Part shown: positions 5,514-37,579 of the stretch, one piece after another
Layout of the letters: each line of letters starts with the position of its first letter
Position numbering within the stretch: position 1 is the first letter of the stretch
NCBI GenBank assembly: GCA_964384165.1
Contig: CAYLKB010000001.1
Coordinates: forward strand, 2,030 to 47,884
Source of the DNA: an uncultured Methanosarcinales archaeon
GTDB lineage: Archaea; Nanobdellota; Nanobdellia; Woesearchaeales; UBA583
Length of the DNA: 45,855 nt
Direction of reading: 5' to 3'
Position numbers and translations under genes: made by a program
The notes under the pieces: generated by a model
What the model was told of the DNA's origin: nothing
Databases searched by the model: none
Seen by the model: only the letters and a program-made list of their open reading frames with translations

Positions 5514-5551
5514 GCCAAGATCGCATAATCCGGTATTGCGCAACCCTGGAA
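5514..5551 (+). tRNA. 5' half of chromosomal tRNA-Ser(GGA): acceptor 5' strand, D-arm, anticodon-stem 5' strand, loop nt 32-37
   Basis: GCCAAGA-TC-GCAT-AATCCGGTA-TTGC-G-CAACC-CTGGAA. The acceptor strand GCCAAGA and anticodon-stem strand CAACC are exactly complementary to TCTTGGC and GGTTG at 37304-37345. No T-arm or 3' acceptor strand follows locally. Confidence 0.8.
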
Positions 5552-5553
5552 AG
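5546..5553. repeat. left copy of att core / direct repeat CTGGAAAG
   Basis: An identical 8-mer is found at 37297-37304. It coincides with anticodon loop nt 32-38 plus one further nt. Confidence 0.75.
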
Positions 5554-9261: not shown

Positions 9262-10184
9262 AAGGAAACAATAAATATCCATTTACAGAAAAATATAGAC
9301 CTAATTGTTGGGGTGATTTAGTTTATAAAGATAAGTGGAAATTAAAGAAAAACTTTGAACTAAATAGAATTACACATCTTTTAGTGTATTCAGAGAGTGG
9401 GGGAACTGGCAAGGGTTCAATTGCCAATATAATTAAAAATCAATATGAACAAACTTTTCTTGAAATTAATTGTGGAATTGATAATGGTAAAGATTATTTA
9501 TCAAAAAGAATTGTTGATATTCCTTCTATAATTAATTGGTATTCTGGGAGAAGAAAAGTTTTATTTATTGATGAAGTTAATAAATTATCTCCTGAAGCAT
9601 TTGAAACTTTAAAAGTTCCTCTTGAAAAATATGCTCATATTTGTATGGTAATAATTGCAACTAATAATATAAAAAAAATTCCACAACCAGTTTTATCAAG
9701 ATTTTATAAAATAGATTTATCAAATCCTGATAAAGATATGATTTTAGAAAGATTAAAATATATTTGTGAAGAAGAAAATGTCCAATATAATGAAGATATA
9801 TTAAGAAATATAATTAAAGATTATTATCCTTCAATTAGAGAAATGATAACACATATTCAAGTAAATCAAGATTATTTATGTGAGGAAGTAGTTAAAAGCA
9901 ATTCACTAACAAAAAAACAAGTTAATTATATTTGGAGAGGATTTATACAAGTAAGAAAAATAATTCCATTATTAAATCATTGTCAAAAGAATAAGTTGAA
10001 TTATTATGATGTTATCAAATCATTAGAAAGTGCAACAAGAATTAGAAATGTTGCTGGTGATAAAACAAATGATATTCAAAGATTAATTGTAGATTACAAA
10101 AACAAAATAATAAATGAACAAAATTCTGACAATTTAATGGAAGAATTTTTACATAAATTTGACAAAATTTTGTCAAAAAAATAA
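9255..10184 (+). CDS. RFC/clamp-loader-like AAA+ ATPase
   Basis: 309 aa. N-terminal EKYRPNCWGDLV (RFC box II-like), P-loop ESGGTGKGS (Lys followed by Gly rather than S/T), Walker B VLFIDEVNKL, sensor region IIATNNIKKIPQPVLSRF. Confidence 0.75.
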   Translation: MLKGNNKYPFTEKYRPNCWGDLVYKDKWKLKKNFELNRITHLLVYSESGGTGKGSIANIIKNQYEQTFLEINCGIDNGKDYLSKRIVDIPSIINWYSGRRKVLFIDEVNKLSPEAFETLKVPLEKYAHICMVIIATNNIKKIPQPVLSRFYKIDLSNPDKDMILERLKYICEEENVQYNEDILRNIIKDYYPSIREMITHIQVNQDYLCEEVVKSNSLTKKQVNYIWRGFIQVRKIIPLLNHCQKNKLNYYDVIKSLESATRIRNVAGDKTNDIQRLIVDYKNKIINEQNSDNLMEEFLHKFDKILSKK

Positions 10185-12452: not shown

Positions 12453-14204
12453 TTAATCTTTATCATATTTTAAATTAACTTGAACTCCTAACAATTTACC
12501 TTCTTCTTTCTCATCACTTAAATATAACACAATATTCTCATTATTTTCTCCAAAAATTCTTTTTTGTTCTTCTTCGTTATATTCTTGCATAATAGTATCG
12601 TATTGGTCTTGATTTAATGAAGCAATATATTGTAAGTTATCATTAATAGTATTTTCATAAGCAAGTCTGAAAAGAATTGCTCTTTGTCTTGGGTCTATTT
12701 CACTAAATAATTTACTATCGTGAAAAAGAAAATTTATATTATGATTATTTCTCGCTTTAAGTAATGTAAAATCAAATGAGAATATTTTTACTGAATTAAC
12801 TCCACCAGAACTATCATCATCTAAACTTGCTTTTATTTCATATCTTAAAGTATTAATATTTTCATTTGGTATAATCTCAATCCCACCTGCTTTATCTTCA
12901 TAAAATTCTCTTGAAAATGACCTGAATAATTGTAAATTCCTTTCTAATATACTTTTTTTATTTTTTAAACTCTTATTTGCTTCAATATCTTGATTTTTAA
13001 ATTCTAATTTTATTTCATTTATTTTATCTTCATATTCTTCTTTCAACTCTTTATATTCTACCAATTTATCATATTGTTTCTTTAATGAATATAAATTATT
13101 ATTAATTACTTCTAATTTTTCAAAAGCACCATATTTTTTTAGGAATAATGATTTTTCATTATAATCTTGTTGAAGTGTAATCATTTGTTTATTTAAGTTC
13201 ATTAATTCTTTTGTTAATTTTTCTTCTTCTATATTTAATCTATATTTTCTATTCTCAATTATTTTGTTATGAAATAAATTAATCTCATCTAATTTTTTTG
13301 TAATTATTTCTCCAAAATGAACATTTGCTTCTTCGTAAACTTTTTTGATTTTTTTTAGATTAATATCAACCTTTAACTCTTTACTCTTTGCAATGTTTTT
13401 CAATGCATTTTCTAATAAAGAAATTTTATTGTTGATAATATGTATTTGAATTCCTATTTGTTTTGTTGTTTTTTCAATTTCATTATAATTTTCAGCAATT
13501 TTAAAATCTTTTTTTTCTTTTTCTAATTTATTAATTCTTTCTTTAATATCATATATACTAAAATTTAATGAATTATCTTGTTGAAAATGTTTTTTTAATA
13601 TCTCATCATTTTCTAAATTATTTAGATTAGTTTTTATTTTGTCCAATTCTCCTTTTAATTGAAATTTGCTATTTATTAAGGAAATGTTTAATCCAAGTAA
13701 ATAACCAGTATTAATTATAGGCGAGTGAGGATTCTTATCTTCATTTTTTACATAGAAATCATAAGAGTTGTAACTTTCTTTTGTAGGTCTAATAAATCTA
13801 CTAATTAAATTTCTAAAAGTTAAATATGGAATATTAGAAGTTATATCAAAAACTTTTTGTCCCATATACTCTCTAAATTTTGTTAAGGAGTATTCTTTGT
13901 CATTGATATAGATTTTCTTTTGATTATTTGCTTGTCTTTTAATTAAATATATTTCATTATTAATCTCAACTGTCAAATAAAACTCCCAATCATTTAATTT
14001 TTTCTTAATATCAGGTATTTCATTAGAACCTAAACAAAAATGAATTAAAGCAATTGTTAAGGATTTTCCAGTTCCATTATATGTTCCCTTTCCACCTTTT
14101 TTATCTGTATCTTTTTTTTTCGCTAAAATTATAGATAAACCTTTCTCATTAAACTCAATTGTTCTAAATGATTCTTTGTTTGCATCTAATTTAATTAATT
14201 TCAA
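12453..14204 (-). CDS. ABC-3C system SMC-like ABC ATPase (DUF2326-type)
   Basis: 583 aa. N-terminal Walker A YNGTGKSLT, a long central coiled coil, C-terminal signature-like DDSSGGVNSVK and Walker B NFLFHDS. Last gene of a 3-gene minus-strand operon with overlapping stop/start codons. Confidence 0.75.
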   Translation of the reverse strand: MKLIKLDANKESFRTIEFNEKGLSIILAKKKDTDKKGGKGTYNGTGKSLTIALIHFCLGSNEIPDIKKKLNDWEFYLTVEINNEIYLIKRQANNQKKIYINDKEYSLTKFREYMGQKVFDITSNIPYLTFRNLISRFIRPTKESYNSYDFYVKNEDKNPHSPIINTGYLLGLNISLINSKFQLKGELDKIKTNLNNLENDEILKKHFQQDNSLNFSIYDIKERINKLEKEKKDFKIAENYNEIEKTTKQIGIQIHIINNKISLLENALKNIAKSKELKVDINLKKIKKVYEEANVHFGEIITKKLDEINLFHNKIIENRKYRLNIEEEKLTKELMNLNKQMITLQQDYNEKSLFLKKYGAFEKLEVINNNLYSLKKQYDKLVEYKELKEEYEDKINEIKLEFKNQDIEANKSLKNKKSILERNLQLFRSFSREFYEDKAGGIEIIPNENINTLRYEIKASLDDDSSGGVNSVKIFSFDFTLLKARNNHNINFLFHDSKLFSEIDPRQRAILFRLAYENTINDNLQYIASLNQDQYDTIMQEYNEEEQKRIFGENNENIVLYLSDEKEEGKLLGVQVNLKYDKD

Positions 14205-14439
14205 CTTCTAATTCACCTTTTTTATTTAATTTAAGAACATTAATAGTATATAAAAAATCAATGCTTAATATAAATGTGTCAAAACTCAATGTTGAAGAAT
14301 ATTTTTTTCCTTTCATTTTTTCAACATCAATCCAAAGTTCATCAACATTTTTTGATTTCTTTTTTAATCTTTCAATTATTATTGAACCAATACCTATTAA
14401 GGATTCAGAATTTTTTATATGTTTTTCTGGAAAAATCAT
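14191..14439 (-). CDS. ABC-3C middle component (small wHTH-like adaptor)
   Basis: 82 aa. ATGA overlap with the upstream gene and a 14-nt overlap with the ATPase. Size, position and the LIGIGSIIIERL...SFDTFILSIDFLYTINVL pattern fit MC proteins. Confidence 0.6.
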   Translation of the reverse strand: MIFPEKHIKNSESLIGIGSIIIERLKKKSKNVDELWIDVEKMKGKKYSSTLSFDTFILSIDFLYTINVLKLNKKGELEVEIN

Positions 14440-15374
14440 TTTTTATTTTTAATTGGTGTTTCAAATATATCACAAGTTTCAAAATAATAGGACATTAATA
14501 CTAATGTAGCATTTAACATTGCTTGATTATTATCTGGAATAGATTTGTTTAGTATATCAAAAAATATCTGATTTTCATCTTTAAATTTCTTTTTTGCATT
14601 ATCATATAATTTTTTAAATTTCTTTTGTAAAATACTTCTATTATTTGAGTTAGATTCAAAATATGTTTCTATATTCCCTACTTGTAAATTAGCAGTTGAT
14701 AATAATGCATCAATATTAGGATTAAGATTGTTAAAGGTAATTTTTTCTTTAAAATCTGGTGCAATTGCTTTTCCTATAAAAGAAGTTTCAACTGGTTGTT
14801 TAAGTAAATAATTAATAACATCAATTAATGCAGACATACTTATATCATCATATAAATCTTCTTGATTAGGAATAAAACCAACTAATGATATAATATCTTG
14901 TTTTCCTAATGAAAAAAATACTTTTTGAATTTTTTCAGAATTAAAAATTTCAAAGTTTATTTTATTATGTTCTTTCTCTAATTCTAACAAACATTTGTGG
15001 ATTGGTTCAGGAACTCCTTCAAACTTATCATTAATAACAAATGAGAAATGTTTTATTTCACAACTTTTATCCCAAAATTTGAATAATCCCTTAAAATCAT
15101 CTTTTAACTTTTTTTTTGCATTAGAGAGTGCATTTATTAATGATTTAGGAGCATATACTTGATAATAATGTCCTTTGGTTTTGTTGAAACCATCATTTTT
15201 CCTATCTCCAATGTTCCCATATGCTTTAACAGCTTGAAAATCAGAATCAAACTTTAATAAAATTTTTACAAAAAAATCTTCAAATGATTGTCCATCTAAT
15301 TCAAATAAAAGATTTTTAAATTTTAATTCATAAAGATAAAACTCACTATTATTTAACATTATAAATATTTGCAA
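14436..15374 (-). CDS. ABC-3C effector component (N-terminal Mrr/REase-like region + helical C-terminal domain)
   Basis: 312 aa. The N-terminal FEDFFVKILL..VKAYGNIGDRKNDGF..YYQVYAP resembles Mrr-type PD-(D/E)xK N-termini. First gene of the operon. Confidence 0.55.
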   Translation of the reverse strand: MQIFIMLNNSEFYLYELKFKNLLFELDGQSFEDFFVKILLKFDSDFQAVKAYGNIGDRKNDGFNKTKGHYYQVYAPKSLINALSNAKKKLKDDFKGLFKFWDKSCEIKHFSFVINDKFEGVPEPIHKCLLELEKEHNKINFEIFNSEKIQKVFFSLGKQDIISLVGFIPNQEDLYDDISMSALIDVINYLLKQPVETSFIGKAIAPDFKEKITFNNLNPNIDALLSTANLQVGNIETYFESNSNNRSILQKKFKKLYDNAKKKFKDENQIFFDILNKSIPDNNQAMLNATLVLMSYYFETCDIFETPIKNKK

Positions 15375-15508
15375 ATTTATTTATATATAAAGTTTGTGCA
15401 ACAACTTGATAGAAATAACTATTTAGGGATAATTTTTGACACTTTTATGCCATCAGTTGTTATAAATAAATAACAAAGTATATAAAAAGGATTTATAGAA
15501 TAATTATT

Positions 15509-18292
15509 ATGGAATTAAATAAGCAACAATTAGATGCAATTCAATCTATTTCTCAACCAACTTTGATTGTTGCAGGTCCAGGAGCAGGAAAAACAAGAGT
15601 AATAGTTGAAAAAATTATTTATTTAGTTAAAGAAAAAAGATATAAACCTGAAAAAATATTTGTTTCAACTTTTACAGTAAAGGCATCAGATGAGTTAAAA
15701 CATAGATTAAGAAAAGAATTAGGAGATTCTGTTGAAAATATGCAAATAGGAACTTTTCATTCATTTTGTCAAACAATGCTTGAAACATATTCTAATGATA
15801 ATGGTTTTGGAACCTCATTTAGAGTTTTAGATGAAGAAGAGCAATATGCTTTAATTTCAAATTTTGCTAATTATGGTTATAGATATGGTCTAAAAGATAT
15901 AATTAAACCTGTTCAAGTTACTGATTTAATAAATATTTTTAATAAAATAACTGAAAATGCAATTGATTCTTATGAATTGATAGAATATGTTCAAGAAGAA
16001 CCTAATAATGATGATAAAGAAAAACGATTAAAGATTGCAGAAGCATATGATAAATATATAGGTCATTTGAAAGATTTACAATTAATGGATTTTGCAAACC
16101 TTCAAAAAGAATTTTTAAATATGATTGAAGATAATTCTGAAATATTAAGTGAAATAAAAAAATCATTTGATTATTATTTAATTGACGAATACCAAGATAC
16201 TAATCCTATACAAAATGAAATCTTAAAACTTCTTGTTAATCCTGAAAATAATATTACTTGTGTTGGTGATGAGGACCAATCAATTTATTCTTTTAGAAAT
16301 GCAACTGTTGAAAACTTTAGAAATTTTCATAATGATTTTAGTAATAGTAAAGAAATTAATTTAGAAACTAATTATCGTTCTACAAAAGATATTATTGATT
16401 TGAGTAATAATTTTATTAAAGAAAATAGAACTTATGAAAAAAAAATAGGTTCTAATAGAGATTCATTTAATAAACCATTAATCATAAAAGGAGTATCTTT
16501 TGAAGATGAAGCAGAGAAAGTAGTAAAATTTATTTTAAATTTAAAAGAAAATAATAAAATACAACATTTTGGAGATGTTGCTGTCCTGTTCAAAAGTGTA
16601 AGATATCACTCAAAAGAATATGTTGAAATGTTTAATAAATTTGAGATTCCATTTGAAATAAAAGGTGATGGAAGTTTGTTAAATGAAAATGAACTTAAAA
16701 CCATTATATATTTGATGGCTTATTTGAAAGACTTTACTCCAAATGAGAAGATAATTGAAAAATGGGATTATTTGGGTTATGAATTATTATTTAATAATGT
16801 ATTAAATCTTAATGAAAAATCAATTGAAATTATTAGACAAAATATTACCTCTGAAAATCTTGATGAATTATTCATATTAGATAAATTAAAAGATTTAAAT
16901 ATTGATAAGGAAGATATTAGAAAATTAATGACATTAAAAAAGACCAAAGAAATGGTTATCAAAAAAGATAAAGGAAAAGATAAATACTCTTTAACTGATT
17001 TATTTTATGATGTATTAAGAACAACTGGTTACTTGAATAGACTTTTTGAGAATACAGAAGATTTAATGAATGAGATTATGATTTCAAATTTGGGAGAATT
17101 GAGTTTAATTATAAATAAATATGAAAACAATGTTGGAAATAATTTCAAAAATTTCATTTATTATTTAACTTATTTACCTGAAGAAAAGAAGAGAGATTCT
17201 GCTTCTAACAACGATGGAAAATCTGTAAAAATTATGACAATTCATCAATCAAAAGGATTACAATTTCCAGTAGTAATTATGGGGACAGTTACTTTTGAGA
17301 GATATAACAAAAAAAGACCTAAATTTGGGGAATTTTTTGAAATACCAAATAAACTTATGATGTTAAAGAAGGAACCAAGTGAAGAAGAAGAAAAAAAAAG
17401 ATTATTTTATGTGGCAATGACAAGAGCTCAAGATTTATTAGTATTTGCAACAACAGATGGAACACAAGTCTCTCCATCAACATTTTTAACAAATGATATT
17501 GGAATTAATAATTTACAAAGTATTGAAAGTTTTAATAAGAAATTAGAAAAAACAGCTGATGAACCTGATAAAATTAAACAAATGACTTATTCAGCAGTTA
17601 ATAACTATTTATCTTGTCCATTTAGATTTAAATTAAATTATGAATATGGATTTCAAACTAAACCTACATATTTTCAAAATTATGGGATTGTTGTTCATAA
17701 TGTTCTTCATAAATTTCATATTGATATAAAAAATAATCAAATAGTTGAAAGAAAATTAAGACAAAGAGTAAGAGAGATAGTTATTTCTTGTTGGATGCCT
17801 GTGTCCAATAATTCATCAAAAGATGAAAAGTTAAGAGAACATTTAATTGAAGAACTTGTTAATTATTATCGTAATGTAAAAGATGATATAAAGGAAATAG
17901 TTGAAATTGAAAAACCATTTTCATATATTGATTCAAATATTGTAATTAAAGGTAGGTTAGATTTAATGATAAAAAATAAAGATGATAAAATCGAATTATG
18001 GGATTTTAAAGCAAGAAATGTAGAAAATATTGATGATACATTTGTTAAAGAACAATTAAAGATGTATAATATTGCTTTACAAAATCAATATAATATTGAT
18101 AACTTAATTGCTTATACATTTAAAGATAATATGAAAACTCCATTTGATAATAGCCAAAAAGAATTAGATAAAACAAAAAAGTTATTAAATAATATCAAAG
18201 AAAGTATAATTAAGAACAAATTTGAAAGGAATTTAAACTCAAAATTCTGTAATTATTGCGATTATAGATTCCTATGTTATAAAAATGGTTGA
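15509..18292 (+). CDS. UvrD/PcrA-type SF1 helicase fused to a Cas4/AddB-like PD-(D/E)XK Fe-S nuclease
   Basis: 927 aa. Helicase motifs AGPGAGKT, IDEYQDTN, VGDEDQSIYSFRNA, TNYRS, TIHQSKGLQFPVV, LFYVAMTRAQ. C-terminal CPFRF...LWDFKAR...QLKMYN...CNYCDYRFLC, i.e. a nuclease core flanked by Cys residues. Confidence 0.85.
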   Translation: MELNKQQLDAIQSISQPTLIVAGPGAGKTRVIVEKIIYLVKEKRYKPEKIFVSTFTVKASDELKHRLRKELGDSVENMQIGTFHSFCQTMLETYSNDNGFGTSFRVLDEEEQYALISNFANYGYRYGLKDIIKPVQVTDLINIFNKITENAIDSYELIEYVQEEPNNDDKEKRLKIAEAYDKYIGHLKDLQLMDFANLQKEFLNMIEDNSEILSEIKKSFDYYLIDEYQDTNPIQNEILKLLVNPENNITCVGDEDQSIYSFRNATVENFRNFHNDFSNSKEINLETNYRSTKDIIDLSNNFIKENRTYEKKIGSNRDSFNKPLIIKGVSFEDEAEKVVKFILNLKENNKIQHFGDVAVLFKSVRYHSKEYVEMFNKFEIPFEIKGDGSLLNENELKTIIYLMAYLKDFTPNEKIIEKWDYLGYELLFNNVLNLNEKSIEIIRQNITSENLDELFILDKLKDLNIDKEDIRKLMTLKKTKEMVIKKDKGKDKYSLTDLFYDVLRTTGYLNRLFENTEDLMNEIMISNLGELSLIINKYENNVGNNFKNFIYYLTYLPEEKKRDSASNNDGKSVKIMTIHQSKGLQFPVVIMGTVTFERYNKKRPKFGEFFEIPNKLMMLKKEPSEEEEKKRLFYVAMTRAQDLLVFATTDGTQVSPSTFLTNDIGINNLQSIESFNKKLEKTADEPDKIKQMTYSAVNNYLSCPFRFKLNYEYGFQTKPTYFQNYGIVVHNVLHKFHIDIKNNQIVERKLRQRVREIVISCWMPVSNNSSKDEKLREHLIEELVNYYRNVKDDIKEIVEIEKPFSYIDSNIVIKGRLDLMIKNKDDKIELWDFKARNVENIDDTFVKEQLKMYNIALQNQYNIDNLIAYTFKDNMKTPFDNSQKELDKTKKLLNNIKESIIKNKFERNLNSKFCNYCDYRFLCYKNG

Positions 18293-19931
18293 AAAAAAAA
18301 TAAAATATAAGGGAGGGTTAGAATTAAATTGGATAAATAAACATCAATCTGTCTATTACGAATATGATGAAAATGGTAATCCTGGAGAGCCAATATGGGT
18401 TGATAAAAATGATATTAGAGTTTCAGAACCAAGAATATTAAAACATATAGAGGACTTTGGAGATACTTCAAATTTAAAGGAACCATTAGATAATGCTTTA
18501 ATAAAAGGAGATAACTTATTAGGATTAAGAACTCTTGTAGAAGAATTCAAAAATAGACCTGAAAAAAATAAAGTAAAATGTGTTTACATAGACCCACCAT
18601 ATAATACAGGTAATGATGATTTTATATACGATGATAATTTAAAACATTCTGAATGGTTAACAATGATGAGAGATAGGTTATTGTTAATTAAAAAATTAAT
18701 GAGAAATGATGGAGTTATATTTATTTCAATTGATGATAATGAAAATCATAGGTTGAGGCTTTTATGTGATGAGATTTTTGGTCCTGAAAATTTTATTGCT
18801 AATATTGTATGGAAAAAAAGAAGTGGTGGTGGGTATACTAATGCTTTACTATCTACAAATCACGAATATGTGTTGGTTTATGCAAAAAATAGAATTAATG
18901 TAGTTTTTAATGATAAAGAAAAAAATATTAATGAACTTAAAAAAAAATATAATTGTGAAGATGAAAAAGGAATTTATAAAAGAAGAGATTTAAGAAAATC
19001 AGGTTCAGCAGATTTAAGAGTTGACAGACCAACAATGTTTTATGAGATTAATGCTCCAGATGATTCAATTATTATTCCTATTCGTCCAAAAGATAAAAAA
19101 GAAGGAAGGTGGTGTGTTGGTAAAAATAAATTTTATGAATTAAAAGATAACAATGATATTGAATTTGTAAAAATAAAAGGACATTGGAAAGTTTATTTAA
19201 AAGAAAGACCATATAAAGAAGAGGGAGTAATGAAGAAAGAAAAATATGAAACTATTTGGGATAATGTAGCATTAAATACACAAGCAAGAAATGAAATTAA
19301 AAATATTTTCCCAGAAAAAGAAAATCCCTTTGATTATCCTAAACCAATAAAATTAATAAAATTTATTTTAAATATTGCAACTAATGAGGGAGATTTAATA
19401 TTAGATTCTTTTGCAGGTTCAGGTTCAACAGGTCAGAGTATATTCGAAATGAATGAAATCACAAAAATACATAGAAAATTTATATTAATTGAATTACAGT
19501 CTAAAATTGCAGAAGAAATTACCAAAGAAAGATTGAATAGGTATATTTTAAATAAAAAGAATGGGTTTGGTTTTAGGTATTATCAACTTGGAGAATCATT
19601 AATTAAAGATAATGATATGAATTGGGATTTAACTTATGAAGAAATAGCAAAAGCATTGTTTTTTACATTTGATTTTTCCTTTGATAATAAAATAAACGAA
19701 AATACTTATTATGGACATAATGAAAAAGCAACTGCTTTATGTATTGTATCTAAAAAATTAAACATATTAAATAAAAACCAAATCGAAGAATTTATTTCAA
19801 AAATAAAAAATAAAAGAGAAAAGTTAGTTATCTATACAAATAATGGTATAGCAATTAAATCAAATGATTTAGATGATTCAATTGTAATTAAAAAAATACC
19901 TGAATCAATATTGAGGAAATATAAATTATAA
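18285..19931 (+). CDS. mod: Type III R-M Mod subunit (beta-class N6-adenine/N4-cytosine DNA methyltransferase)
   Basis: 548 aa. Motif IV VYIDPPYNTGND precedes motif I DSFAGSGSTGQ (beta permutation). The ATG overlaps the helicase stop (ATGGTTGA). Confidence 0.85.
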   Translation: MVEKKIKYKGGLELNWINKHQSVYYEYDENGNPGEPIWVDKNDIRVSEPRILKHIEDFGDTSNLKEPLDNALIKGDNLLGLRTLVEEFKNRPEKNKVKCVYIDPPYNTGNDDFIYDDNLKHSEWLTMMRDRLLLIKKLMRNDGVIFISIDDNENHRLRLLCDEIFGPENFIANIVWKKRSGGGYTNALLSTNHEYVLVYAKNRINVVFNDKEKNINELKKKYNCEDEKGIYKRRDLRKSGSADLRVDRPTMFYEINAPDDSIIIPIRPKDKKEGRWCVGKNKFYELKDNNDIEFVKIKGHWKVYLKERPYKEEGVMKKEKYETIWDNVALNTQARNEIKNIFPEKENPFDYPKPIKLIKFILNIATNEGDLILDSFAGSGSTGQSIFEMNEITKIHRKFILIELQSKIAEEITKERLNRYILNKKNGFGFRYYQLGESLIKDNDMNWDLTYEEIAKALFFTFDFSFDNKINENTYYGHNEKATALCIVSKKLNILNKNQIEEFISKIKNKREKLVIYTNNGIAIKSNDLDDSIVIKKIPESILRKYKL

Positions 19932-19933
19932 AA

Positions 19934-22624
19934 ATGGAATATTACAAAGAGTTAATTAAAGATGAGCAGTATAAAAAAGCATTGGAAAATATTGATGAAG
20001 AATTAATAAAAGATTTACAAGAAGGTATTAATTCAAAATATTCATTTAGAGAATATCAAAAAAAAGCACTTAATGTATTTCATTTTTTTAATAAAATCTC
20101 AAAAGATTATACTTTCAAATATAAATTATATGATGAAAAATATGACAATATTCCCTTTTATGGTTTTGAAATGGCAACAGGAAGTGGAAAAACAATTTTA
20201 CTTGGTTCAAATATATTATATCTAAATAAATATAATAAAATCAAAAACTTTTTAATTATAACTCCTAATAGAACAATATATGAAAAAACAATTAAAAATT
20301 TTGATTTAAATGATATTCATTGTATTTTTTCTAATAACTTGCCCTTTAAATTTAATTTAGTAACAGGAGATAATTATCAAGATAAAAGTTCTAATTATGA
20401 AGAAGATGCTGATTTTAATATATTTGTATTTAATATTAGTAAATTCTTTGAGAAAAATAGTTCTATAATGAACATTGATAAACCTTGGGAAGCAGGTTAT
20501 TGGAAACACCCTAAAACAAACGAAGTAGTTTCATTTAGAGAATATTTACAATTAATAGATTTAGCAATATTAACAGATGAATCCCATCACTATCAAAATT
20601 TTAAAGTTGGAAATACAAATAAGTCGTCAGGAGATATAATCGTTGACCTACAACCAAAACTTGTAATTGAGTATACAGCAACTGCTTTATCTGATGAGAA
20701 AGAGAGAAGAAATCAAAAAATAGTATTCAAATATTCTATCGAAGATTATATTAATGAAGGTTTTGGGAAAAAAGTTAGAGCTTTAGGTATTGATAGTAAA
20801 TTTCAACAAGGATTGACAGAATATGATGATAATGGAAATAAATTAGATGACAAAGTTGAAATAATTGAACAAGATGAAACTAAATTAGTTAGAGCATTAA
20901 TTGTTCATTTATTGAAAAAGAAAGCATTAAAGGATACTATTAAACCAGTTTTATTAATTAGAGGAAGAAGGATTGAGCATCTTGAAAATATATATAATTA
21001 TTTAAAAGAAGTGTCTTACAATGAAGATTTAATTAAAACAACTTATCAACATATGATTAAAGATAAAGAATTCGAAATAAATAAATTAATTAGTGAAGAA
21101 TTAACTATTGAAGAAATAATTTTAGGTATTGAAGAACTTATTGATAAAACTTTTACAATACATAGTGGAAATAGGGACCAAGTTGAAGTTGCTTCTAAAT
21201 TTAATGATATAGAAAATAATGACCAAGAGGTCGTTATACAATATGATATTGCAACAGAAGGTTGGAATATTGATAATGTTTATACGATTTTAATTTTAAG
21301 TAATACTCCTGGGAGTATCAAAACTTATATTAAACAATTAACTGGAAGAGGATTGAGATTATATAAAGAGAAAAGAGAATTTGATAACAATGAAAATTTA
21401 ATGTTGCAACAAAAGGAATTATTACATATGATTTGTGAGAAAGGTAGTAATTTTAAAAAGTTTATTGATGAAGTAAGACAAGATTTAGGTTTGAGTGTTG
21501 GAAATTTTTCAGGAGATAATGAAGAAAAAGAAATTTTAAATGATATGACTTTATCAATAGAAGACATTAGTAAGAATAAAGATGTAAAAGTTCCAAAAAT
21601 TATAATAAATAATGAGTTAGAAATAAATAATATTGATGATTTTTTAAATAGAATTAGTTATGAAAATTTAAGAATTGAAAATTTTTATGATGAGGTTTCA
21701 AATTCTTCATATAGTGATGGTTTTGAAATATTATTAAATGAACAAATTGAACAAGAAGAAAGAAGTTTTCAAGAAGGAGATGAAACAAAAGAAAAGTCTG
21801 ATTCAAATTATAAAATGGCAACATTTTATTTAACTGAACCTGAAAGAAGTAAAATTATTAAAAATATAATATCAGGTCAAAATGTTTTACCTTCAACAAT
21901 AGAAATTAATGAGAGATTAAGAGAAATAATTCTAAAAATTGAAGAACATAGTTTTTATTATAAAGAAAAAGATGGGTATAATGCAAGAAATGATGCAGTA
22001 AAGAAATTTATAAATACTTTATCAAGATACATAATTAGAAGAGTTGATACTTATTATCAATCTAAATGTGTAATAAATAAATATGAATCTATATTTGAGA
22101 TTTTCCACAAATATAAATTTAAAGTAATAATAGATGAAGAAAATCCAAGAATTATAGATAAACAAACTTCTATAAGTAGATGGTTAAGTTCATTTGGAGC
22201 ACAAAAAAGTAAAATAAAGGATTATTATATTACAAATTATAATAAATCATATTATTTGTATAATAATTTTGAAAGTTCTCACGAATTAAAGGTGGCAACT
22301 ATACTTGATAATATTGAAGAAATTGACTTTTGGATTAATGCTAAAAATCAATATTATATGGATTATGGTTTAGGAAAAAGATTCTATCCAGATTTTTTCA
22401 TAAAATTAAGAAATTCTAATAAAATATATGTTGTTGAAGTAAAAGGTGGTCATTTACAAGAAACTACAAGGTCAAAAGATAAAATTCAAGCATTGAAAGA
22501 AGTTAATTTAATTGAGCCAAATAAATTTGAAGGATTATGGTTAGAAGATAAAACAGTTGATAAAATGTATGAACAAACAATTAATACATTTAATCAGTTT
22601 AAAAATTATAATGATTTAAAGTAA
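19934..22624 (+). CDS. res: Type III R-M Res subunit (SF2 helicase + C-terminal PD-(D/E)XK endonuclease)
   Basis: 896 aa. Walker A MATGSGKT, DEAH-like TDESHHY, C-terminal YPDFFIKL...VVEVKG nuclease motif. Starts 2 nt after the mod stop. Confidence 0.85.
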   Translation: MEYYKELIKDEQYKKALENIDEELIKDLQEGINSKYSFREYQKKALNVFHFFNKISKDYTFKYKLYDEKYDNIPFYGFEMATGSGKTILLGSNILYLNKYNKIKNFLIITPNRTIYEKTIKNFDLNDIHCIFSNNLPFKFNLVTGDNYQDKSSNYEEDADFNIFVFNISKFFEKNSSIMNIDKPWEAGYWKHPKTNEVVSFREYLQLIDLAILTDESHHYQNFKVGNTNKSSGDIIVDLQPKLVIEYTATALSDEKERRNQKIVFKYSIEDYINEGFGKKVRALGIDSKFQQGLTEYDDNGNKLDDKVEIIEQDETKLVRALIVHLLKKKALKDTIKPVLLIRGRRIEHLENIYNYLKEVSYNEDLIKTTYQHMIKDKEFEINKLISEELTIEEIILGIEELIDKTFTIHSGNRDQVEVASKFNDIENNDQEVVIQYDIATEGWNIDNVYTILILSNTPGSIKTYIKQLTGRGLRLYKEKREFDNNENLMLQQKELLHMICEKGSNFKKFIDEVRQDLGLSVGNFSGDNEEKEILNDMTLSIEDISKNKDVKVPKIIINNELEINNIDDFLNRISYENLRIENFYDEVSNSSYSDGFEILLNEQIEQEERSFQEGDETKEKSDSNYKMATFYLTEPERSKIIKNIISGQNVLPSTIEINERLREIILKIEEHSFYYKEKDGYNARNDAVKKFINTLSRYIIRRVDTYYQSKCVINKYESIFEIFHKYKFKVIIDEENPRIIDKQTSISRWLSSFGAQKSKIKDYYITNYNKSYYLYNNFESSHELKVATILDNIEEIDFWINAKNQYYMDYGLGKRFYPDFFIKLRNSNKIYVVEVKGGHLQETTRSKDKIQALKEVNLIEPNKFEGLWLEDKTVDKMYEQTINTFNQFKNYNDLK

Positions 22625-22668
22625 ATTAAATCATAATTCTTATAAACAATTAAAATTTTAATTAAGTT

Positions 22669-24351
22669 ATGAGAAATCAAACTGAAACAATAAGTAAACT
22701 TATTAGATTTATTAATAATGAAGAAGAAGAGGGTGGTCTTTGGTTACCAAAGATACAAAGAAAATTTGTTTGGAGTGAAAAACAAATTGAAACTTTATTT
22801 GATTCAATTATGAGAGAGTATCCAATTAGTTCCCTATTAATTTGGAAAACTAAATCAGAAATTGATACAAGAAAGTTTATTGCTTCTTATAATTCTAAAA
22901 TAAAAATTACTGATTTATATATTGAAAATAATAATAAAATCAAAAATTTAGTTTTAGATGGACAACAAAGATTACAAAGTTTATATATTGCTTTAAAAGG
23001 AAGTTATGAAAACAAAGAATTATATTTTAATATATTAAGTGGGGTTTCCAATGATGTAGATGAATTAAAATATGAATTCAAATTTTTTGATAAAAAAAAT
23101 AAAAAAATAAGTGGAAATTGGATTAAATTCAAAGATATAATCAATTCAAGTAAACAATATGACGATATTGCAGAAGATATAATTGACAATTTTAAGAATA
23201 AAAAATTGGAAAAAGATGAAAAAAAAATTATAAGAAACAATATTGCAAGAATTATTAAGTTATTTAAAACAGATGAAATTATTCCCTTTCAAAAATTAGA
23301 TAGTGTTGAAGATAATAGTATTTACGATGAAAATGATATCGTGGAAGTATTTATTAGAGCAAATTCAGGTGGAACTAAATTAGAAAAATCTGATTTATTA
23401 TTTTCCTTATTAACTGCTAATTGGTCAGAAGCAGAAGAAAATATTGAATTATTACAAGAAGAATTAAATTCAGATGGGTTTAAATTTTCAAGAGATTTTA
23501 TTCTTAAAACTTGTTTAACATTATTAGATACAGGGGCTAAATATGATGTAAAAAAATTTAGAAATAAAGAAAATCTTAAAAAAATTGAAGAACAATGGGA
23601 AGGCATTAGTAATGCAATAAAAGATGTTAAAGATTTTTTAGTTACTGAAACTTATGTTAGAACAGATAAAGCAATGCCAAGTTATTTGCCATTAATACCA
23701 TTAATATATTTCAGGTTTAAATATAGAAATGAATGGGATAAAAGAATAAAAAATCTTGATTTATGGTTACTTAAAGTATTAGTAACTGGTGCATTTAGTG
23801 GAAGTCCTGATGGATTAATAGATAAGATTATTAAGAAAATTAATGAAAATAAAACCTTTATTATTGATGATATTAATGAAATCATCATTAATTCAGGTAG
23901 GAATATAAATATAACAAAAGATTTGATTAAGAATACTTATTATGGATATAAAGATTTGTATTTATTATTTAATTTATGGTATTCTCAACATAAATTCAAT
24001 TTCAAACCATCATTTAAAGGAAATGAATTACAAATTGACCATATTTTTCCTCAATCAAAATTAAAAGAAATTAAAGAATTAAATGAAAAAACTGGCAGAC
24101 ACATTATGAGATATAATGTTGGTGAAAGAGATGAAATTGCAAATTGTATGTTATTAACTCAAAAAGAAAATGGAGCATCAGGTAAAACTGATAAACTTCC
24201 TGAAGTTTGGTTTGATGATAAAGATGATGAATATTTAGAAATGCATTTAATTCCAAAAGATAAAAAATTATGGAAACTAAAAAATTTCGAAGAATTTAAA
24301 GAAGAAAGAACTAAATTATTAATTGAAGAATTTCTAAAACTTTTAAATTAA
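22669..24351 (+). CDS. GmrSD-family Type IV (modification-dependent) restriction enzyme, DUF262 + DUF1524
   Basis: 560 aa. N-terminal ParB-like DUF262 (IQRKFVWSEKQIETLFDSI..YPISSLLIW, DGQQRL) and C-terminal His-Me DUF1524 (LQIDHIFPQS ... N). Confidence 0.85.
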   Translation: MRNQTETISKLIRFINNEEEEGGLWLPKIQRKFVWSEKQIETLFDSIMREYPISSLLIWKTKSEIDTRKFIASYNSKIKITDLYIENNNKIKNLVLDGQQRLQSLYIALKGSYENKELYFNILSGVSNDVDELKYEFKFFDKKNKKISGNWIKFKDIINSSKQYDDIAEDIIDNFKNKKLEKDEKKIIRNNIARIIKLFKTDEIIPFQKLDSVEDNSIYDENDIVEVFIRANSGGTKLEKSDLLFSLLTANWSEAEENIELLQEELNSDGFKFSRDFILKTCLTLLDTGAKYDVKKFRNKENLKKIEEQWEGISNAIKDVKDFLVTETYVRTDKAMPSYLPLIPLIYFRFKYRNEWDKRIKNLDLWLLKVLVTGAFSGSPDGLIDKIIKKINENKTFIIDDINEIIINSGRNINITKDLIKNTYYGYKDLYLLFNLWYSQHKFNFKPSFKGNELQIDHIFPQSKLKEIKELNEKTGRHIMRYNVGERDEIANCMLLTQKENGASGKTDKLPEVWFDDKDDEYLEMHLIPKDKKLWKLKNFEEFKEERTKLLIEEFLKLLN

Positions 24352-25820
24352 ATAACTAATTTTTCCAATTCTTCAACTAATTTTACCATTGCAAGTGTAT
24401 CCATTTGACAATACGACAATAAATGATTTCTTATATTTTCAATTTGTTCATCATCAATATATTTAAATATTGAATAAAAATATTCTAAACTCGCATCTCC
24501 ACCATTACCAATTTCCAATTCAGTATAACTCATATTAGGAACTAATGTAGGTAAGACATACTTAATTGATGTTGAACCACATTGAGCATTGTTATAATAC
24601 CAAAAGTTTCTAAAAATATCCCAAAGGTCTACAAATCTTGGCAAGATTGATTTAATCCAATCCTTATATTCAGGCAAAAACTCTCCAACTTCTTTTGTTA
24701 CACTCTTTTCAAAACCTTGATTATAAACTACAATTGAACCAACATCATCAATATTTTCTTTAAGTTTTTTAATAAATTCAGGTCTTGGGTCTTTGTTTCC
24801 TTCTGCCAAAAATTCAATATGTTCTAATTCTCCATTAGGTTCTCTTTGAATATGTAATGAAAATTGGAAAGGAACTCTTTGATAAGGTTTAAATCCATCA
24901 TACATAGGTATAGCACAATTATAAGTTTCATAGTCTAAAAAATATAAAGGATATTCCAAATTTCCCAAGAAATCTTTAATCATATTCTTTTCAATATGTA
25001 AACAATTGTTTTTAGCACAAGTATATTGGACTGATTGTTTTTCACTTAACTTAAATCTTAATGGAATATCTTTTATCTCCATTACATCAAGTTCATCAAA
25101 TAAAGTCATTGCTTTTGTTTTACCTCTTGTTAAATCAAATACATTGTTCTCTGGAAGAAAATTCCAACACAAACTTGGATTAGGACAATCTTTTGGATTA
25201 TCACAATATTCTCCAAATCTTGCTTTATTATATACATTATAATTAATTAAATCAAGTAAACCTTTAATTTTTCTATCAATACCATCATATACTTCTTTTA
25301 CACCTTCACTAACATCTACTTTAACAAATAACTCATTAATATCAATATTTCCATTTCTTACATATTGATTATTTAAATGAAGAATATTATAACTCTTAAT
25401 CTTTAATCCACAATTTTCATAGATATATTTTTGAAATGCCAAGTCTTCAATATGTTCAGGTTTTATTGATGAACTTGCTTTAACTTCAATCACTTCCCAA
25501 CTATCTTTACCAATAGGAACTAAAATGTCTGGTCTTGTAAAACAATTATTAAACATAAAACCAGCTTCAAAGATTGGAACTCTATTTGACAATACTTTAT
25601 TTGTTTCTTCAATAACTGGTTTGAATTTAATTCCTTTGATTTCAATTCCATTCGAAAAAAGTTGTTTTGCATATTCTCCTACAATATGTCCTTCATCAAT
25701 TCTATGTAATGCTTGGTTATTTAAACCATTAAGTTTTTCAGGTTCATATATTTGTGTCCACAAAGAAAGAGGACAAGTAAGACCAAGTTTATATTTAGAT
25801 TTCGTTAAAATTACATTCAT
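24348..25820 (-). CDS. DUF2779 protein (Cas4-like PD-(D/E)XK N-terminal domain + RNase H-like C-terminal domain)
   Basis: 490 aa. N-terminal LTKSKYKLGLTCPLSLW, nuclease core PDILVP..WEVIEVKAS, central YFLDYETYNCAIPMYDGFKPYQRVPFQFSLH, all characteristic of DUF2779. Its stop overlaps the GmrSD stop. Confidence 0.75.
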   Translation of the reverse strand: MNVILTKSKYKLGLTCPLSLWTQIYEPEKLNGLNNQALHRIDEGHIVGEYAKQLFSNGIEIKGIKFKPVIEETNKVLSNRVPIFEAGFMFNNCFTRPDILVPIGKDSWEVIEVKASSSIKPEHIEDLAFQKYIYENCGLKIKSYNILHLNNQYVRNGNIDINELFVKVDVSEGVKEVYDGIDRKIKGLLDLINYNVYNKARFGEYCDNPKDCPNPSLCWNFLPENNVFDLTRGKTKAMTLFDELDVMEIKDIPLRFKLSEKQSVQYTCAKNNCLHIEKNMIKDFLGNLEYPLYFLDYETYNCAIPMYDGFKPYQRVPFQFSLHIQREPNGELEHIEFLAEGNKDPRPEFIKKLKENIDDVGSIVVYNQGFEKSVTKEVGEFLPEYKDWIKSILPRFVDLWDIFRNFWYYNNAQCGSTSIKYVLPTLVPNMSYTELEIGNGGDASLEYFYSIFKYIDDEQIENIRNHLLSYCQMDTLAMVKLVEELEKLVI

Positions 25821-35263: not shown

Positions 35264-35467
35264 TTATATGTCAAAATTTTGACAATATTCTTTCACTTTT
35301 TTGTCAATTTTTGGTTTAGTTTGTAGCAGTTGTTGTTGCATATTGATAATAATTGATTTAAGTTCATCAACTTCTTTTTCAAGTTTTGATATTCTTTGTT
35401 CATTAGTTTGTTTTATTTTCTTCAAATAGTTCTTCCCAGTGTAGCAAAGTTTTTTTATATTCTTCAA
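35264..35467 (-). CDS. hypothetical coiled-coil ORF (doubtful)
   Basis: 67-aa ORF overlapping the integrase 3' end by 65 nt. No motif. Confidence 0.3.
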   Translation of the reverse strand: MKNIKKLCYTGKNYLKKIKQTNEQRISKLEKEVDELKSIIINMQQQLLQTKPKIDKKVKEYCQNFDI

Positions 35468-36710
35468 TACAAGTGTTTAATTTTTCAGAATAATTTTTCC
35501 AACCAGGAATTTTTGTTAATCTTGATTGAATAAAATCTGATATAATAAAATCTATTTTTAATGAATTCATATATGACTTGCCATAGTTTCTATGATACTT
35601 AAACCATACTAATTGATTATCTGCTCTATTCTGTAATCTTCTTTTGAAATCGTGTAAAATTATATTTTTGAAATGTTCTGGATTTTGTTCATATATTTCA
35701 ATAATTCTTTTAATTGTTTTTGTTCTACAAAACATAAAAAGACCTTTTTTCTTATCAATTGTTTTCTTTTTAGGTTTTTTTATTTTATAAACTGCAACAT
35801 CACCATATATTTGTAAATTATCATAATTAAAATTTTTAAAACAATCTCTCTCAATACTTTTCCATCTTGCACCACTTTCAACTGATAATTGATACAAAAG
35901 TAAATCAATTTCTGAAATAGGTGGTGATTTTCTGGTTTTCTTAATTGGATTTATAATTAATGTTCTAATTAATCTAATACTCTCTTGCATTTCTTCAAAT
36001 GAGGGCATATAATCATCATATCCATCATTATTTTCTTGTTTTTTTGATTTAATATTTGTTAATATAATTCCAATATGGTCAAAACTTAATAAAGCAAAAC
36101 ATTTACAGAATTCTATAAATTTTCTAAATTGTGATATTGTTGAAACCTCTTCTCTTTGAGAAAGAGCATAATATTCATTAACATTTATGACATTTTCATC
36201 TATAAAAATATGTCTATTTTTGTTAATATGTCTTACTGTTGTATCATCAGTCCAACCAAAACTCCTAATCCAATCTTCAAATTCTTTTTGATTTTGAAGA
36301 TAAATTTTTTGAAGATTAACTTTTTCAACTCTATTATCTGATAAATTTTTTGAAATTTCTGATAGTGTATCAATATACTTTTGTTTTTCACTTATTTTAG
36401 ATTGAAGTTCTTCTTTTTCTTTTTCAAATTCTAATTCTCTTTTTAACCCATTTGTTATGAAACTTATATAATCTTTAACGATATTATAACTTCTTTCACT
36501 TAATTCTTCTTTGAAGATTGAGAGATTTAATAAAGAAAAAGGAATACTACAAATTTGTTCATATGAAATATCTTCATTATCTTGATTTAATAAATTAATC
36601 CAACCACCAAGAATACTCTCTATTACTTGTTTTTCATAAAAATCATCTTGTTTATCTTTTGGTAATGATTTAACTTCTTCAATTTTTTTTAACAAATCTT
36701 TGGGTAACAT
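35403..36710 (-). CDS. tyrosine integrase, intact paralogue of the partitioned integrase
   Basis: 435 aa. LSVESGARWKSIERD..YGDVAVY.. aligns with MIQTGCRWTETVD..EGDVCAY.. of Int(C). C-terminal KYHRNYG...GWKNY. Lies beside the tRNA-Ser gene. Confidence 0.75.
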   Translation of the reverse strand: MLPKDLLKKIEEVKSLPKDKQDDFYEKQVIESILGGWINLLNQDNEDISYEQICSIPFSLLNLSIFKEELSERSYNIVKDYISFITNGLKRELEFEKEKEELQSKISEKQKYIDTLSEISKNLSDNRVEKVNLQKIYLQNQKEFEDWIRSFGWTDDTTVRHINKNRHIFIDENVINVNEYYALSQREEVSTISQFRKFIEFCKCFALLSFDHIGIILTNIKSKKQENNDGYDDYMPSFEEMQESIRLIRTLIINPIKKTRKSPPISEIDLLLYQLSVESGARWKSIERDCFKNFNYDNLQIYGDVAVYKIKKPKKKTIDKKKGLFMFCRTKTIKRIIEIYEQNPEHFKNIILHDFKRRLQNRADNQLVWFKYHRNYGKSYMNSLKIDFIISDFIQSRLTKIPGWKNYSEKLNTCIEEYKKTLLHWEELFEENKTN

Positions 36711-36826
36711 TACTAAATATAATAATAGTATATTTAAAAGAGTTAGCAGACATAAATAAAAGTTTTTAATGGTCTATTAATAATGATTTTAGTTAGTTTA
36801 TAAGAATTATTTCGTTTAAACAAAAA

Positions 36827-36909
36827 CGCCACCAATGGGATTTGAACCCATATGCCCATAAGGGCGTAGATTTCCAGTCTACTGCAATACCAAGTTATGC
36901 GATAGTGGC
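36827..36909 (-). tRNA. tRNA-Ser(GGA), intact, carried inside the element
   Basis: Reverse complement folds as GCCACTA-TC-GCAT-AACTTGGTA-TTGC-A-GTAGA-CTGGAAA-TCTAC-GCCCTTATGGGCAT(long variable arm)-ATGGG-TTCAAAT-CCCAT-TGGTGGC-G. Anticodon GGA, discriminator G, no encoded CCA. Confidence 0.9.
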
Positions 36910-37117
36910 AATATAAACAATCTACTATTTAATAATTTTAATTAATTAGTAGAATATATCTATTATAATAATAAAAATAAAATTCCATTTAAAAGGTTTG
37001 CTAAATGATTTATATTATTGAATAGATATTTTAATTAAAAAAACAGTGAAAAATTATATAAATTAACACTTGTTATTTATTACTTATTTAGTAGGAATTT
37101 ATATACTAAAAGAAACA

Positions 37118-37303
37118 ATGCCAAAGTTAAAATCAACAAAAGAAAGAGTGTTGATTACTATTGACAAAGACTTGTTAAAATTGATAAAACAACAAAATAA
37201 AAGGGTTTCGACATTGATTAACGATGTTTTACAAATGTATTTGTTAAACCATTATAATCAAGAATTAAATGAGTTGTTACTACTTAACGCTCGTTTCTGG
37301 AAA
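37118..37303 (+). CDS. SSV-type integrase N-terminal fragment Int(N) (62 codons up to the att core)
   Basis: The ATG at 37118 follows a TATA-like ATTATATAAA. MPKLKSTKERVLITIDKDLLKLIKQQ.. is RHH-like. The frame runs ..NARFWK into the att core and then continues through the tRNA 3' half to a stop at 37441. Confidence 0.7.
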
Positions 37304-37304
37304 G
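37297..37304. repeat. right copy of att core / direct repeat CTGGAAAG
   Basis: Identical to 5546-5553. Preceded by GCTCGTTT, the reverse complement (with one G.U) of GAACGAGC that follows the left copy. Confidence 0.75.
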
Positions 37305-37346
37305 GTTGTCCCTTTGGGATTCTGGGTTCAAATCCCAGTCTTGGCG
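37303..37346 (+). tRNA. 3' half of chromosomal tRNA-Ser(GGA): nt 38, anticodon-stem 3' strand, long variable arm, T-arm, acceptor 3' strand, discriminator G
   Basis: A-GGTTG-TCCCTTTGGGATT-CTGGG-TTCAAAT-CCCAG-TCTTGGC-G. Complementary to the 5' half at 5514-5551. Joined, the two halves give a canonical 81-nt class II tRNA plus discriminator. Confidence 0.8.
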
Positions 37347-37579
37347 TTACACTTAAGATTGTTCTTTTCACCTTTGTCCTCACTTCTGCTTTGCATAAGT
37401 TTGAGCGAAAAATCATTCTGATTTTTCTGGATGCTTTTTGAACCATGTTCAAAATAGTATGTTTATCTTTTCTAAGAAAAATCTTCATAGAAAAATATTT
37501 TGAATGTTTTTGAAGATATATGACTTTTCTTTTAATTATTATTTGTTATAAGTATTACAGATATATTTTTAAAACTTAA

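Follow-up and report, generated by a model that had tools for sequence, protein, structure and literature searches.

The tRNA-dependent lysogeny of actinobacteriophages has been shown experimentally in mycobacteriophages (Guerrero-Bustamante & Hatfull, mBio 2024, PMC10865867). In these systems, represented by Fionnbharth and other phages of the K4, L and X clusters, with prophage Lj965 of Lactobacillus johnsonii cited in the same work, the core is 8-10 bp long, the host tRNA is not rebuilt upon integration, and a phage tRNA of the same isotype is required for viable lysogens. In Archaea, the SSV-type or "suicidal" integrases, which are restricted to that domain and carry PF16795, offer a second parallel; the overlap region of IntSSV1 is the anticodon loop, and archaeal integrations are said always to restore an uninterrupted tRNA gene (2021 review, PMC8371274). 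A third parallel is given by Nanoarchaeum equitans and Caldivirga, which have split tRNA genes (Randau et al. 2005, reviewed in PMC4090602), and by a model in which tRNA genes of Caldiarchaeum were disrupted by mobile elements (Sugahara et al. 2012, PMC3293823). Here we describe a locus that touches all three, in a stretch of 45,855 nucleotides from an uncultured archaeon (contig CAYLKB010000001.1 of assembly GCA_964384165.1; hereafter, the window, G+C ~24%), where an integrated element divides a chromosomal tRNA-Ser(GGA) gene at its anticodon loop and carries an intact tRNA-Ser(GGA) gene of its own.

The locus displays the sequence-level features of tRNA-dependent lysogeny, namely a 7-8 bp core in the anticodon loop, a carried tRNA and no rebuilding, and it is best read, by analogy, as the archaeal counterpart of the bacteriophage strategy. 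In both, a tyrosine integrase uses an attB in a host tRNA gene, the core is short, the gene is not rebuilt, and a complete tRNA with the same anticodon is supplied. The two differ in that the host here is archaeal, and in that the integrase is of the SSV type, with attP in its own open reading frame (ORF) and an int gene that is split, and not a lambda-like enzyme with arm sites; moreover, the core coincides exactly with the 7 nt of the anticodon loop, and next to the tRNA there is a second intact integrase. No virion genes were found here, so the term lysogeny may not apply, and the requirement for the tRNA, shown in phages, is here a putative one. In the literature that we searched, the reports of tRNA-dependent lysogeny concern bacteria, and none was archaeal.

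With SSV1, SSV2, pTN3 and pT26-2 the element shares the PF16795 domain, an attP inside the int ORF, the split into Int(N) and Int(C) and a tRNA target. It departs from the SSV-type systems in that its attP has lost the tRNA 3' half and the host gene is left split, not restored; the SSV-type examples, furthermore, come mostly from hyperthermophiles, whereas the host here has 24% G+C. As read from its junctions, the locus is an exception to the rule that archaeal integration restores the tRNA gene (PMC8371274). As in the Nanoarchaeum, Caldivirga and Caldiarchaeum cases, the tRNA halves are parted at 37/38, they are followed and preceded by a complementary trailer and leader, a bulge-helix-bulge (BHB) motif is possible, and a mobile element is the proposed cause. 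Unlike in those cases, the element that caused the split can be seen, intact and with its two junctions, the flanks are attP arms, an intact replacement gene is present, and trans-splicing is predicted only. The BHB-competent halves have no bacterial equivalent.

The divided tRNA gene and the integrase Int1

The features at the two ends of the element are as follows.

5514-5552, plus strand: 5' half (positions 1-38) of the chromosomal tRNA-Ser(GGA), GCCAAGATCGCATAATCCGGTATTGCGCAACC-CTGGAAA, on the attL side and ending with the anticodon loop
5546-5553, plus strand: left copy of the common core, CTGGAAA(G), the 7-nt anticodon loop
5553-5560, plus strand: right arm of attP, GAACGAGC, an inverted repeat of 37289-37296
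5553-6536, plus strand: Int1(C), the part of the split integrase that holds the catalytic domain (C-terminal 327 codons) and continues the frame of Int1(N) across the core
5553-37296: the integrated element, 31,751 bp counting one core copy
37098-37105, plus strand: candidate archaeal TATA box, TTTATATA, 12 nt upstream of the int1 start codon
37118-37303, plus strand: Int1(N), the N-terminal part of the split integrase (62 codons), whose final residues, ...NARFWK, fall on the core
37289-37296, plus strand: left arm of attP, GCTCGTTT, which after integration lies at the element's right end
37297-37346, plus strand: right core CTGGAAA and 3' half (positions 39-73) of the chromosomal tRNA-Ser(GGA), CTGGAAA-GGTTGTCCCTTTGGGATTCTGGGTTCAAATCCCAGTCTTGGCG, on the attR side

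A search with the T-arm and acceptor string matched the host 3' half at 37325-37345 on the plus strand, and CTGGAAAG occurs at two sites only in the window, 5546 and 37297. When the two host halves are joined in silico, they give an 82-nt cloverleaf of -29.6 kcal/mol, compared with -29.8 kcal/mol for the element copy, and neither half carries a disabling mutation. Apart from the core, the flanks at the two junctions are unrelated to each other; the halves lie 31.7 kb apart and no tRNA gene is restored. The reconstructed attP is a palindrome, GCTCGTTT-CTGGAAA-GAACGAGC, around the 7-bp overlap, and because it lacks the tRNA 3' half, the host tRNA is not rebuilt. The predicted empty attB would read GCGCAACCCTGGAAAGGTTGTCC and the circular attP AACGCTCGTTTCTGGAAAGAACGAGCAAT. 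The core common across hosts is the 7-nt CTGGAAA only, the attR of the contigs L009, L011 and L096 being CTGGAAA-TCTTG, and the eighth base, G, is a coincidence in the window host.

These junctions are not confined to one assembly. The 5' junction of the window, CTGGAAAGAACGAGC, recurs in an independent sample (L007), the attR arrangement recurs in the independently assembled L001, and the same junctions are seen in the independent assemblies L001, L007, L096, L009/L010 and L011. An empty site was sought through the flanking genes; the membrane protein of the left flank had no database record, and the DUF1003 protein of the right flank led to a contig with the occupied arrangement only. IMG/VR held no match to the Int1 alignment, to the reconstructed attP or to the tRNA of the element, and no circular or unintegrated form was recovered.

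The Int1 frame is open across the core, passing from ...NARFWK into ERAISTT... with no stop at 5553 and continuing to 6536. The reconstituted protein of 389 aa matches Pfam PF16795 ("Archaeal phage integrase") at 3.3e-25, and the Int1 family profile matched only structures of the SSV1 integrase catalytic domain (3UXU, 3VCF and 4DKS, 1e-16). Among 50,697 virus records, its relatives are fusellovirus integrases only, at 27-29% identity, and the database homologues are Int(C)-type fragments in ten cases out of ten. Judged by these matches and by the open frame, the element was inserted by an archaeal tyrosine integrase of the SSV type ("suicidal"), whose own gene is cut on insertion. A gene split by the very integration that it brings about is the hallmark of this type, which is confined to Archaea (PMC8371274), and on that basis the host is taken to be an archaeon; its base composition hints, as a guess, at a DPANN-like affiliation. 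The box TTTATATA is kept in all variants of the module described below, and we infer that it is the int1 promoter, which after integration would also transcribe the host 3' half.

Two further observations concern Int1(N). It gives a weak ribbon-helix-helix-like match (BrnA antitoxin, E = 8e-4), and after integration it is in frame with the translated tRNA 3' half, in an ORF of 123 codons (37070-37441).

The carried tRNA-Ser(GGA) and its conserved module

The tRNA gene of the element and its neighbour are the following.

36827-36909, minus strand: intact class II tRNA-Ser(GGA), 83 nt, with no encoded CCA and with discriminator G73, reading GCCACTA TC GCATAACTTGGTATTGC A GTAGA CTGGAAA TCTAC GCCCTTATGGGCAT ATGGG TTCAAAT CCCAT TGGTGGC G
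35403-36710, minus strand: Int2, an intact SSV-type integrase paralogue of 435 aa, which follows the element tRNA on this strand after 117 nt

An earlier note on this DNA, made by inspection of its letters, had placed at 36827-36909 a minus-strand tRNA with anticodon GGA, a long variable arm and discriminator G, and this description was confirmed by ARAGORN, by Rfam and by folding. ARAGORN predicts a single tRNA in the whole window, tRNA-Ser(gga) at 36826-36910 on the minus strand. Rfam RF00005 scores 36827-36909 on that strand at 53.7 bits over the full model (gathering score 29; E = 6.8e-9), and the minimum free energy (MFE) fold is a class II cloverleaf of -29.8 kcal/mol with a long variable arm that has a 4-bp stem, and with G as the discriminator. 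A G73 discriminator is a serine identity feature. A permissive Rfam scan of the window gave nothing credible beyond this gene, which is the sole complete tRNA in the 45.9 kb. It sits ~390 bp inside attR, the right end of the element, between two divergent integrase genes, int1(N) on one side and Int2 on the other, and a T-run lies 3' of its end.

The carried gene and the divided gene are alike in parts and unlike in others, in just the manner that the earlier note had reported. Their D-arms are near-identical, with TCGCATAA...GGTATTGC in common and three mismatches, all in the D-loop; a D-arm pattern search allowing three mismatches returned two matches, where none is expected by chance, the second copy being at 5521-5539 on the plus strand. 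The stem differences quoted in the note proved on alignment to be exact and structure-preserving. The acceptor stem is GCCACTA/TGGTGGC in the element tRNA and GCCAAGA/TCTTGGC in the host gene, the anticodon stem GTAGA/TCTAC as against CAACC/GGTTG, and the T-stem ATGGG/CCCAT as against CTGGG/CCCAG. Across an alignment of six related tRNA-Ser sequences, all 24 of the predicted pairs are kept, 12 of them with changes on both sides.

An Int1(N)/tRNA-Ser(GGA)/Int2 module is present in eight of the eight contigs recovered via Int2, in four diverged variants (module-bearing contigs: L009, L010, L011, L012, L095, L096 and L001). The order is host 3' half, core and Int1(N), then, on the other strand, tRNA-Ser(GGA) and Int2; the Int1(N) ORF was also found in L009, L010, L011 and L096, and the Int2 homologues of 71-79% identity, together with one member of the 90% cluster of Int2, always adjoin the tRNA. 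The host 3' halves beside the module are GGTTG-TCCCTTTGGGA in the window, TCTTG-TCCCTTATGGGA in L009, TCTTG-TTCCTTATGGAA in L011 and TCTTG-TTCCTTTTGGAA in L096. On the other side, L007, which comes from the same sample as L096, has the attL ...GCAAGA-CTGGAAA-GAACGAGC, followed by an Int(C) that is 91% identical to that of the window. By their flanking sequences, related elements occupy at least four different host tRNA-Ser(GGA) genes, and the gene is cut at the loop each time.

The identity of the element tRNA to the window copy is 100% in L096, 95% in L012, 95% in L009 and 92% in L011, and the differences are either in loops or compensatory (12:23 from A-T to G-C and 49:65 from A-T to T-A). 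In the same elements the spacers beside the tRNA are 65-85% identical, and between related elements Int2 has a synonymous divergence (dS) of 0.5-0.8, with a ratio of nonsynonymous to synonymous change (dN/dS) of 0.19-0.25. Since the tRNA is so much better kept than its surroundings, and its stems change in a compensatory manner, it is under strong purifying selection at every right end recovered, and these comparisons amount to strong evidence that it is a functional, selected cargo.

In L009, the host 3' half was noticed a second time, at 1-130 (reverse complement), as ATCTTGTCCCTTATGGGATTGTG; this copy lies ~130 nt past the attR 3' half and reaches the end of the contig. Ahead of it stand ...TTAAGACTGGAAACCAATTG... 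and a short hairpin, and it resembles a tandem remnant of another event.

Int2 itself matches PF16795 (6.9e-9), shares 24% identity with Int1 (E = 6e-13) and, by its dN/dS, is likewise under purifying selection. It keeps the catalytic R...R...W...Y positions, and its most conserved DNA, nt 199-243 of the gene, is not tRNA-like. When a tRNA-like or palindromic attP was sought within Int2, short inverted repeats and a conserved 33-nt stretch came up, neither of them convincing or significant. That Int2 might serve as the excision enzyme of an element whose own integrase is destroyed by insertion is only a suggestion.

Replacement weighed against other explanations

The element tRNA-Ser(GGA) probably replaces the host tRNA that integration splits. 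The attP of Int1 lies inside its own reading frame, with a 7-bp overlap, CTGGAAA, that has the same sequence as the host anticodon loop in tRNA-Ser(GGA), and strand exchange within these 7 bp splits the integrase gene and the host tRNA gene together. At attB the overlap is flanked by the anticodon stem, and at attP by the 8-bp arms. The element tRNA, with the same anticodon, discriminator and class II architecture, would then take over the decoding of UCU and UCC, and integration would thereby not be lethal. Of this account, the two junctions with their short core, the splitting of the int gene, and a tRNA that is conserved and covaries are firm as read in the DNA; we further infer that the element tRNA is expressed and aminoacylated, that the divided gene is the sole tRNA-Ser(GGA) gene of the host, and that the host depends on the element copy. 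The UCU and UCC codons (UCY) make up 27.6% of the serine codons in the host genes of the window, or 15.8 per 1000 codons, and hence a GGA-type decoder is needed. The earlier note had already proposed that the element supplies a replacement tRNA. What stands of that proposal is the same anticodon, the conserved cargo, the core of 7-8 bp and the lack of rebuilding, while its premise that the host tRNA is disrupted is made uncertain by the BHB considered below.

Several points weigh against replacement. The related right ends were all reached through Int2, the neighbour of the tRNA, and the survey is therefore skewed to elements that carry the tRNA. The comparison is limited to the window, so there may be a further host tRNA-Ser(GGA) gene. 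In two relatives that split a tRNA-Ser(TGA), L003 and L094, no tRNA was found in the visible 3-8.5 kb of the element. A survey of related elements for a tRNA matching their target, as suggested in the earlier note, speaks in favour at all of the recovered right ends, which stand at tRNA-Ser(GGA), and against in these two, where no such tRNA is visible. Lastly, the host halves are undamaged and BHB-competent in trans, and trans-splicing, if the model holds, might make the element copy redundant.

This last point can be carried further. It can be hypothesized, tentatively, that a palindromic attP around an anticodon loop makes a split tRNA gene in a single step, with the element tRNA as a safety net until fixation; the attP arms would become the trailer and the leader, the duplicated CUGG would become the 4-bp helix of the BHB, and the int1 promoter would drive the 3' half. 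Rather unlikely, in our estimation, is that the host tRNA is not lost at all, and that integration yields a Nanoarchaeum-style split gene joined at 37/38, the element tRNA being a back-up or serving another purpose. The 5' half would be transcribed from its own promoter and the 3' half from the int1 promoter, the two RNAs would anneal via the attP arms, and the splicing endonuclease and a ligase would join GCAACCCUGGAA of the host 5' half to AGGUUGUCC of the host 3' half.

The pairing in trans was derived by hand and checked by cofolding. With the cut marked by a slash, the attL RNA, ...CAACC-CUGG-AA/A-GAACGAGC, and the attR RNA, GCUCGUUU-CUGG-AA/A-GGUUG, can pair to form the anticodon stem (h), a 3-nt bulge, a 4-bp helix (H), a 3-nt bulge and an 8-bp helix (h'), with predicted cleavage at 37/38. 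Anticodon bases 34 and 35 lie within the central helix, CUGG/CUGG (C-G, U·G, G·U, G-C), and the geometry fits the published definition of a 4-bp helix with the first two anticodon bases and two 3-nt bulges (PMC4090602). The canonical BHB is 0.6 kcal/mol above the MFE in the window (-19.7 vs -20.3 kcal/mol; 5546-5560 with 37289-37303), and again 0.6 apart in the L007/L096 host (-18.2 vs -18.8 kcal/mol). The intact state of both halves, and the conserved TTTATATA box ahead of int1(N) with the 3' half downstream, also suit a split gene. However, complementary arms are to be expected anyway as the inverted core-binding sites of the integrase, and the central helix depends on the chance self-complementarity of CUGG; the BHB would not form for relatives with the Ser(TGA) loop CUUGAAA or the Ser(GCU) loop CUGCUAA. 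Moreover, the central helix of the MFE register is 6 bp long and would not be cut correctly by the endonuclease, and the element tRNA is conserved so strongly as to argue that the split gene does not suffice by itself.

Replacement also has to be set against the notion that the tRNA is generic mobile-element cargo, providing a translation boost or countering an anticodon nuclease of the host or of a competitor, with the match to the target being coincidental. Many viruses do carry tRNAs for reasons of translation or anti-defence (the latter idea is raised in PMC10865867), and the element is rich in defence genes. Yet the gene is the only tRNA of the element, its anticodon is exactly that of the split gene, and the match holds in all variants, all of which makes a coincidence very improbable. 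UCY usage is also alike in element and host genes (16.7 per 1000 codons in the element, against the 15.8 given above), and on that ground codon supply was rejected as the main reason for the element tRNA.

Hardly any weight, finally, can be given to the notion that the tRNA is a leftover attachment site, namely the reconstituted attL tRNA of a second, pNOB8-type element using Int2 that was captured or decayed and has no replacement role. It is true that an intact tRNA (36909-36827) with an intact int (36710-35403) after it on the same, minus strand is the type II archaeal attL layout (PMC3293823), and that L002, L004 and L093 likewise have an intact tRNA-Ser directly upstream of an integrase ORF. 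Yet the element tRNA has its full length and is constrained by selection, the intact Int2 shows a dN/dS of ~0.2, the module is always found next to Int1(N) and accompanies it to different hosts, and no second partial tRNA copy emerged when the tRNA and its flanks were compared with the window by blastn-short, which gave chance-level matches only, AT-rich apart from the best other match, 14/15 nt to the D-arm of the element tRNA at 23671-23685, inside the GmrSD gene (E = 3.3). The remnant attachment site of a second element, which the earlier note had offered as its other explanation, is disfavoured by the same facts. Capture of an attL may explain the origin of the module but not its maintenance.

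That note had also supposed that the differing anticodon stem could make the element copy a poor attB and so shield it from self-integration. The stem-loop of the element tRNA is GTAGA-CTGGAAA-TCTAC in every variant, and the host sites are CAACC-...-GGTTG and CAAGA-...-TCTTG. In favour of the idea, the element copy departs consistently from every host site seen at the two outer pairs, 27:43 and 28:42, and at positions 26/44. Against it, the 13 bp AGA-CTGGAAA-TCT of the element tRNA are identical to those of a genuine attB, CAAGA-CTGGAAA-TCTTG, which the same element uses in another host (L007/L096). Because these inner 13 bp are shared with a real attB, and an Int1 that is 91% identical tolerates differences at both of the inner stem pairs, the idea is weakened in its simple version, although it may still hold. 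The site in the element tRNA is inverted relative to attP and ~430 bp away from it, and all recovered modules have the same orientation; recombination between the two would invert the int1 promoter and N-terminus.

Cargo, relatives with other serine targets, and significance

By Pfam and PHROGs (30 ORFs), the cargo of the element is mainly of defence and DNA metabolism: DUF2326 and CTD10 (ABC-3C), a UvrD-PDDEXK helicase-nuclease, type III Mod and Res, GmrSD, DUF2779 and a clamp-loader-like AAA+ protein. The defence-type genes (DUF2326 and CTD10, UvrD-PDDEXK, the type III methylase and Res helicase, GmrSD and DUF2779) form a dense block at 12453-25820 of the window. None of these 30 ORFs matched a virion hallmark (capsid, portal or terminase) in the same searches, and many of them had no match at all. 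The relatives L003 and L004 carry other defence genes, namely CARF, HsdM, McrBC and UvrD.

Related integrases (43-46% identity) are found at tRNA-Ser(TGA), which they split at its anticodon loop, CTTGAAA. L003, whose integrase is 45% identical, is syntenic with the left flank of the window (threonyl-tRNA synthetase, pyrophosphatase and membrane protein); despite this synteny, at 9969-10020 it is the 5' half of a tRNA-Ser(TGA) that is joined at CTTGAAA to Int(C). L094 (1753-1800) has the same Ser(TGA) target with a different element arm. The core codons in the integrase ORF are TTG-AAA in the L003/L094 type and TGG-AAA in int1 of the window, and, to judge from these cores, one base within the integrase ORF appears to switch the target isoacceptor, matching the first anticodon base of the target. 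An additional 5' fragment of a tRNA, GCCAACTTCGCATAGGTCCGAG, was noticed in L094 at 1553-1580, 190 nt upstream of the split tRNA-Ser(TGA) 5' half. As for the left flank, the host threonyl-tRNA synthetase (1373-3331 of the window) is bacterial-type, and a scan with it of 185,579 species genomes gave 80 loci at no more than 48% identity, mostly bacterial, with one contig of an "uncultured archaeon" at 45%.

A different arrangement is seen in L004 (5643-5792), L005, L006, L093 (9750-9903) and the P0009 protein, in which a tRNA-Ser(GCT) 5' half and a 28-nt spacer are followed by an intact tRNA-Ser(GCT) within the Int(C) ORF, and which recurs in several chromosomal contexts. Without attR three models fit; the arrangement may reflect a split plus replacement, a classical reconstitution beside an older remnant, or a pTN3-like core in the 5' half. 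We therefore dropped it as a clear second case of a split with replacement and regard it as suggestive only. L002 has the classical layout, in which the tRNA-Ser(GCT) is intact and the beginning of Int(C) overlaps it.

What is new here is the archaeal host, the self-splitting integrase with attP in its ORF, and the second intact integrase in the module, the strategy itself being known in bacteria. If the replacement of the host tRNA by the element tRNA holds, the locus would extend tRNA-dependent lysogeny to the Archaea and to self-splitting SSV-type integrases. For the family, the comparison of cores suggests that these integrases retarget between serine isoacceptors via anticodon-equivalent bases in their own coding sequence. 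The origin of split tRNA genes is a long-standing question, a late origin having been said to have "no obvious route" (Kanai 2015), and our search of the literature since 2013 found no report naming both "split tRNA" and "integrase"; the BHB-competent halves raise the interest of the locus beyond that of its tRNA cargo. They would offer a concrete route at the level of sequence, from a mobile element's integration to distant tRNA halves with complementary, BHB-competent flanks. Should the one-step origin of a split gene prove true, the locus would be a mobile element caught in the act of creating a split tRNA gene.

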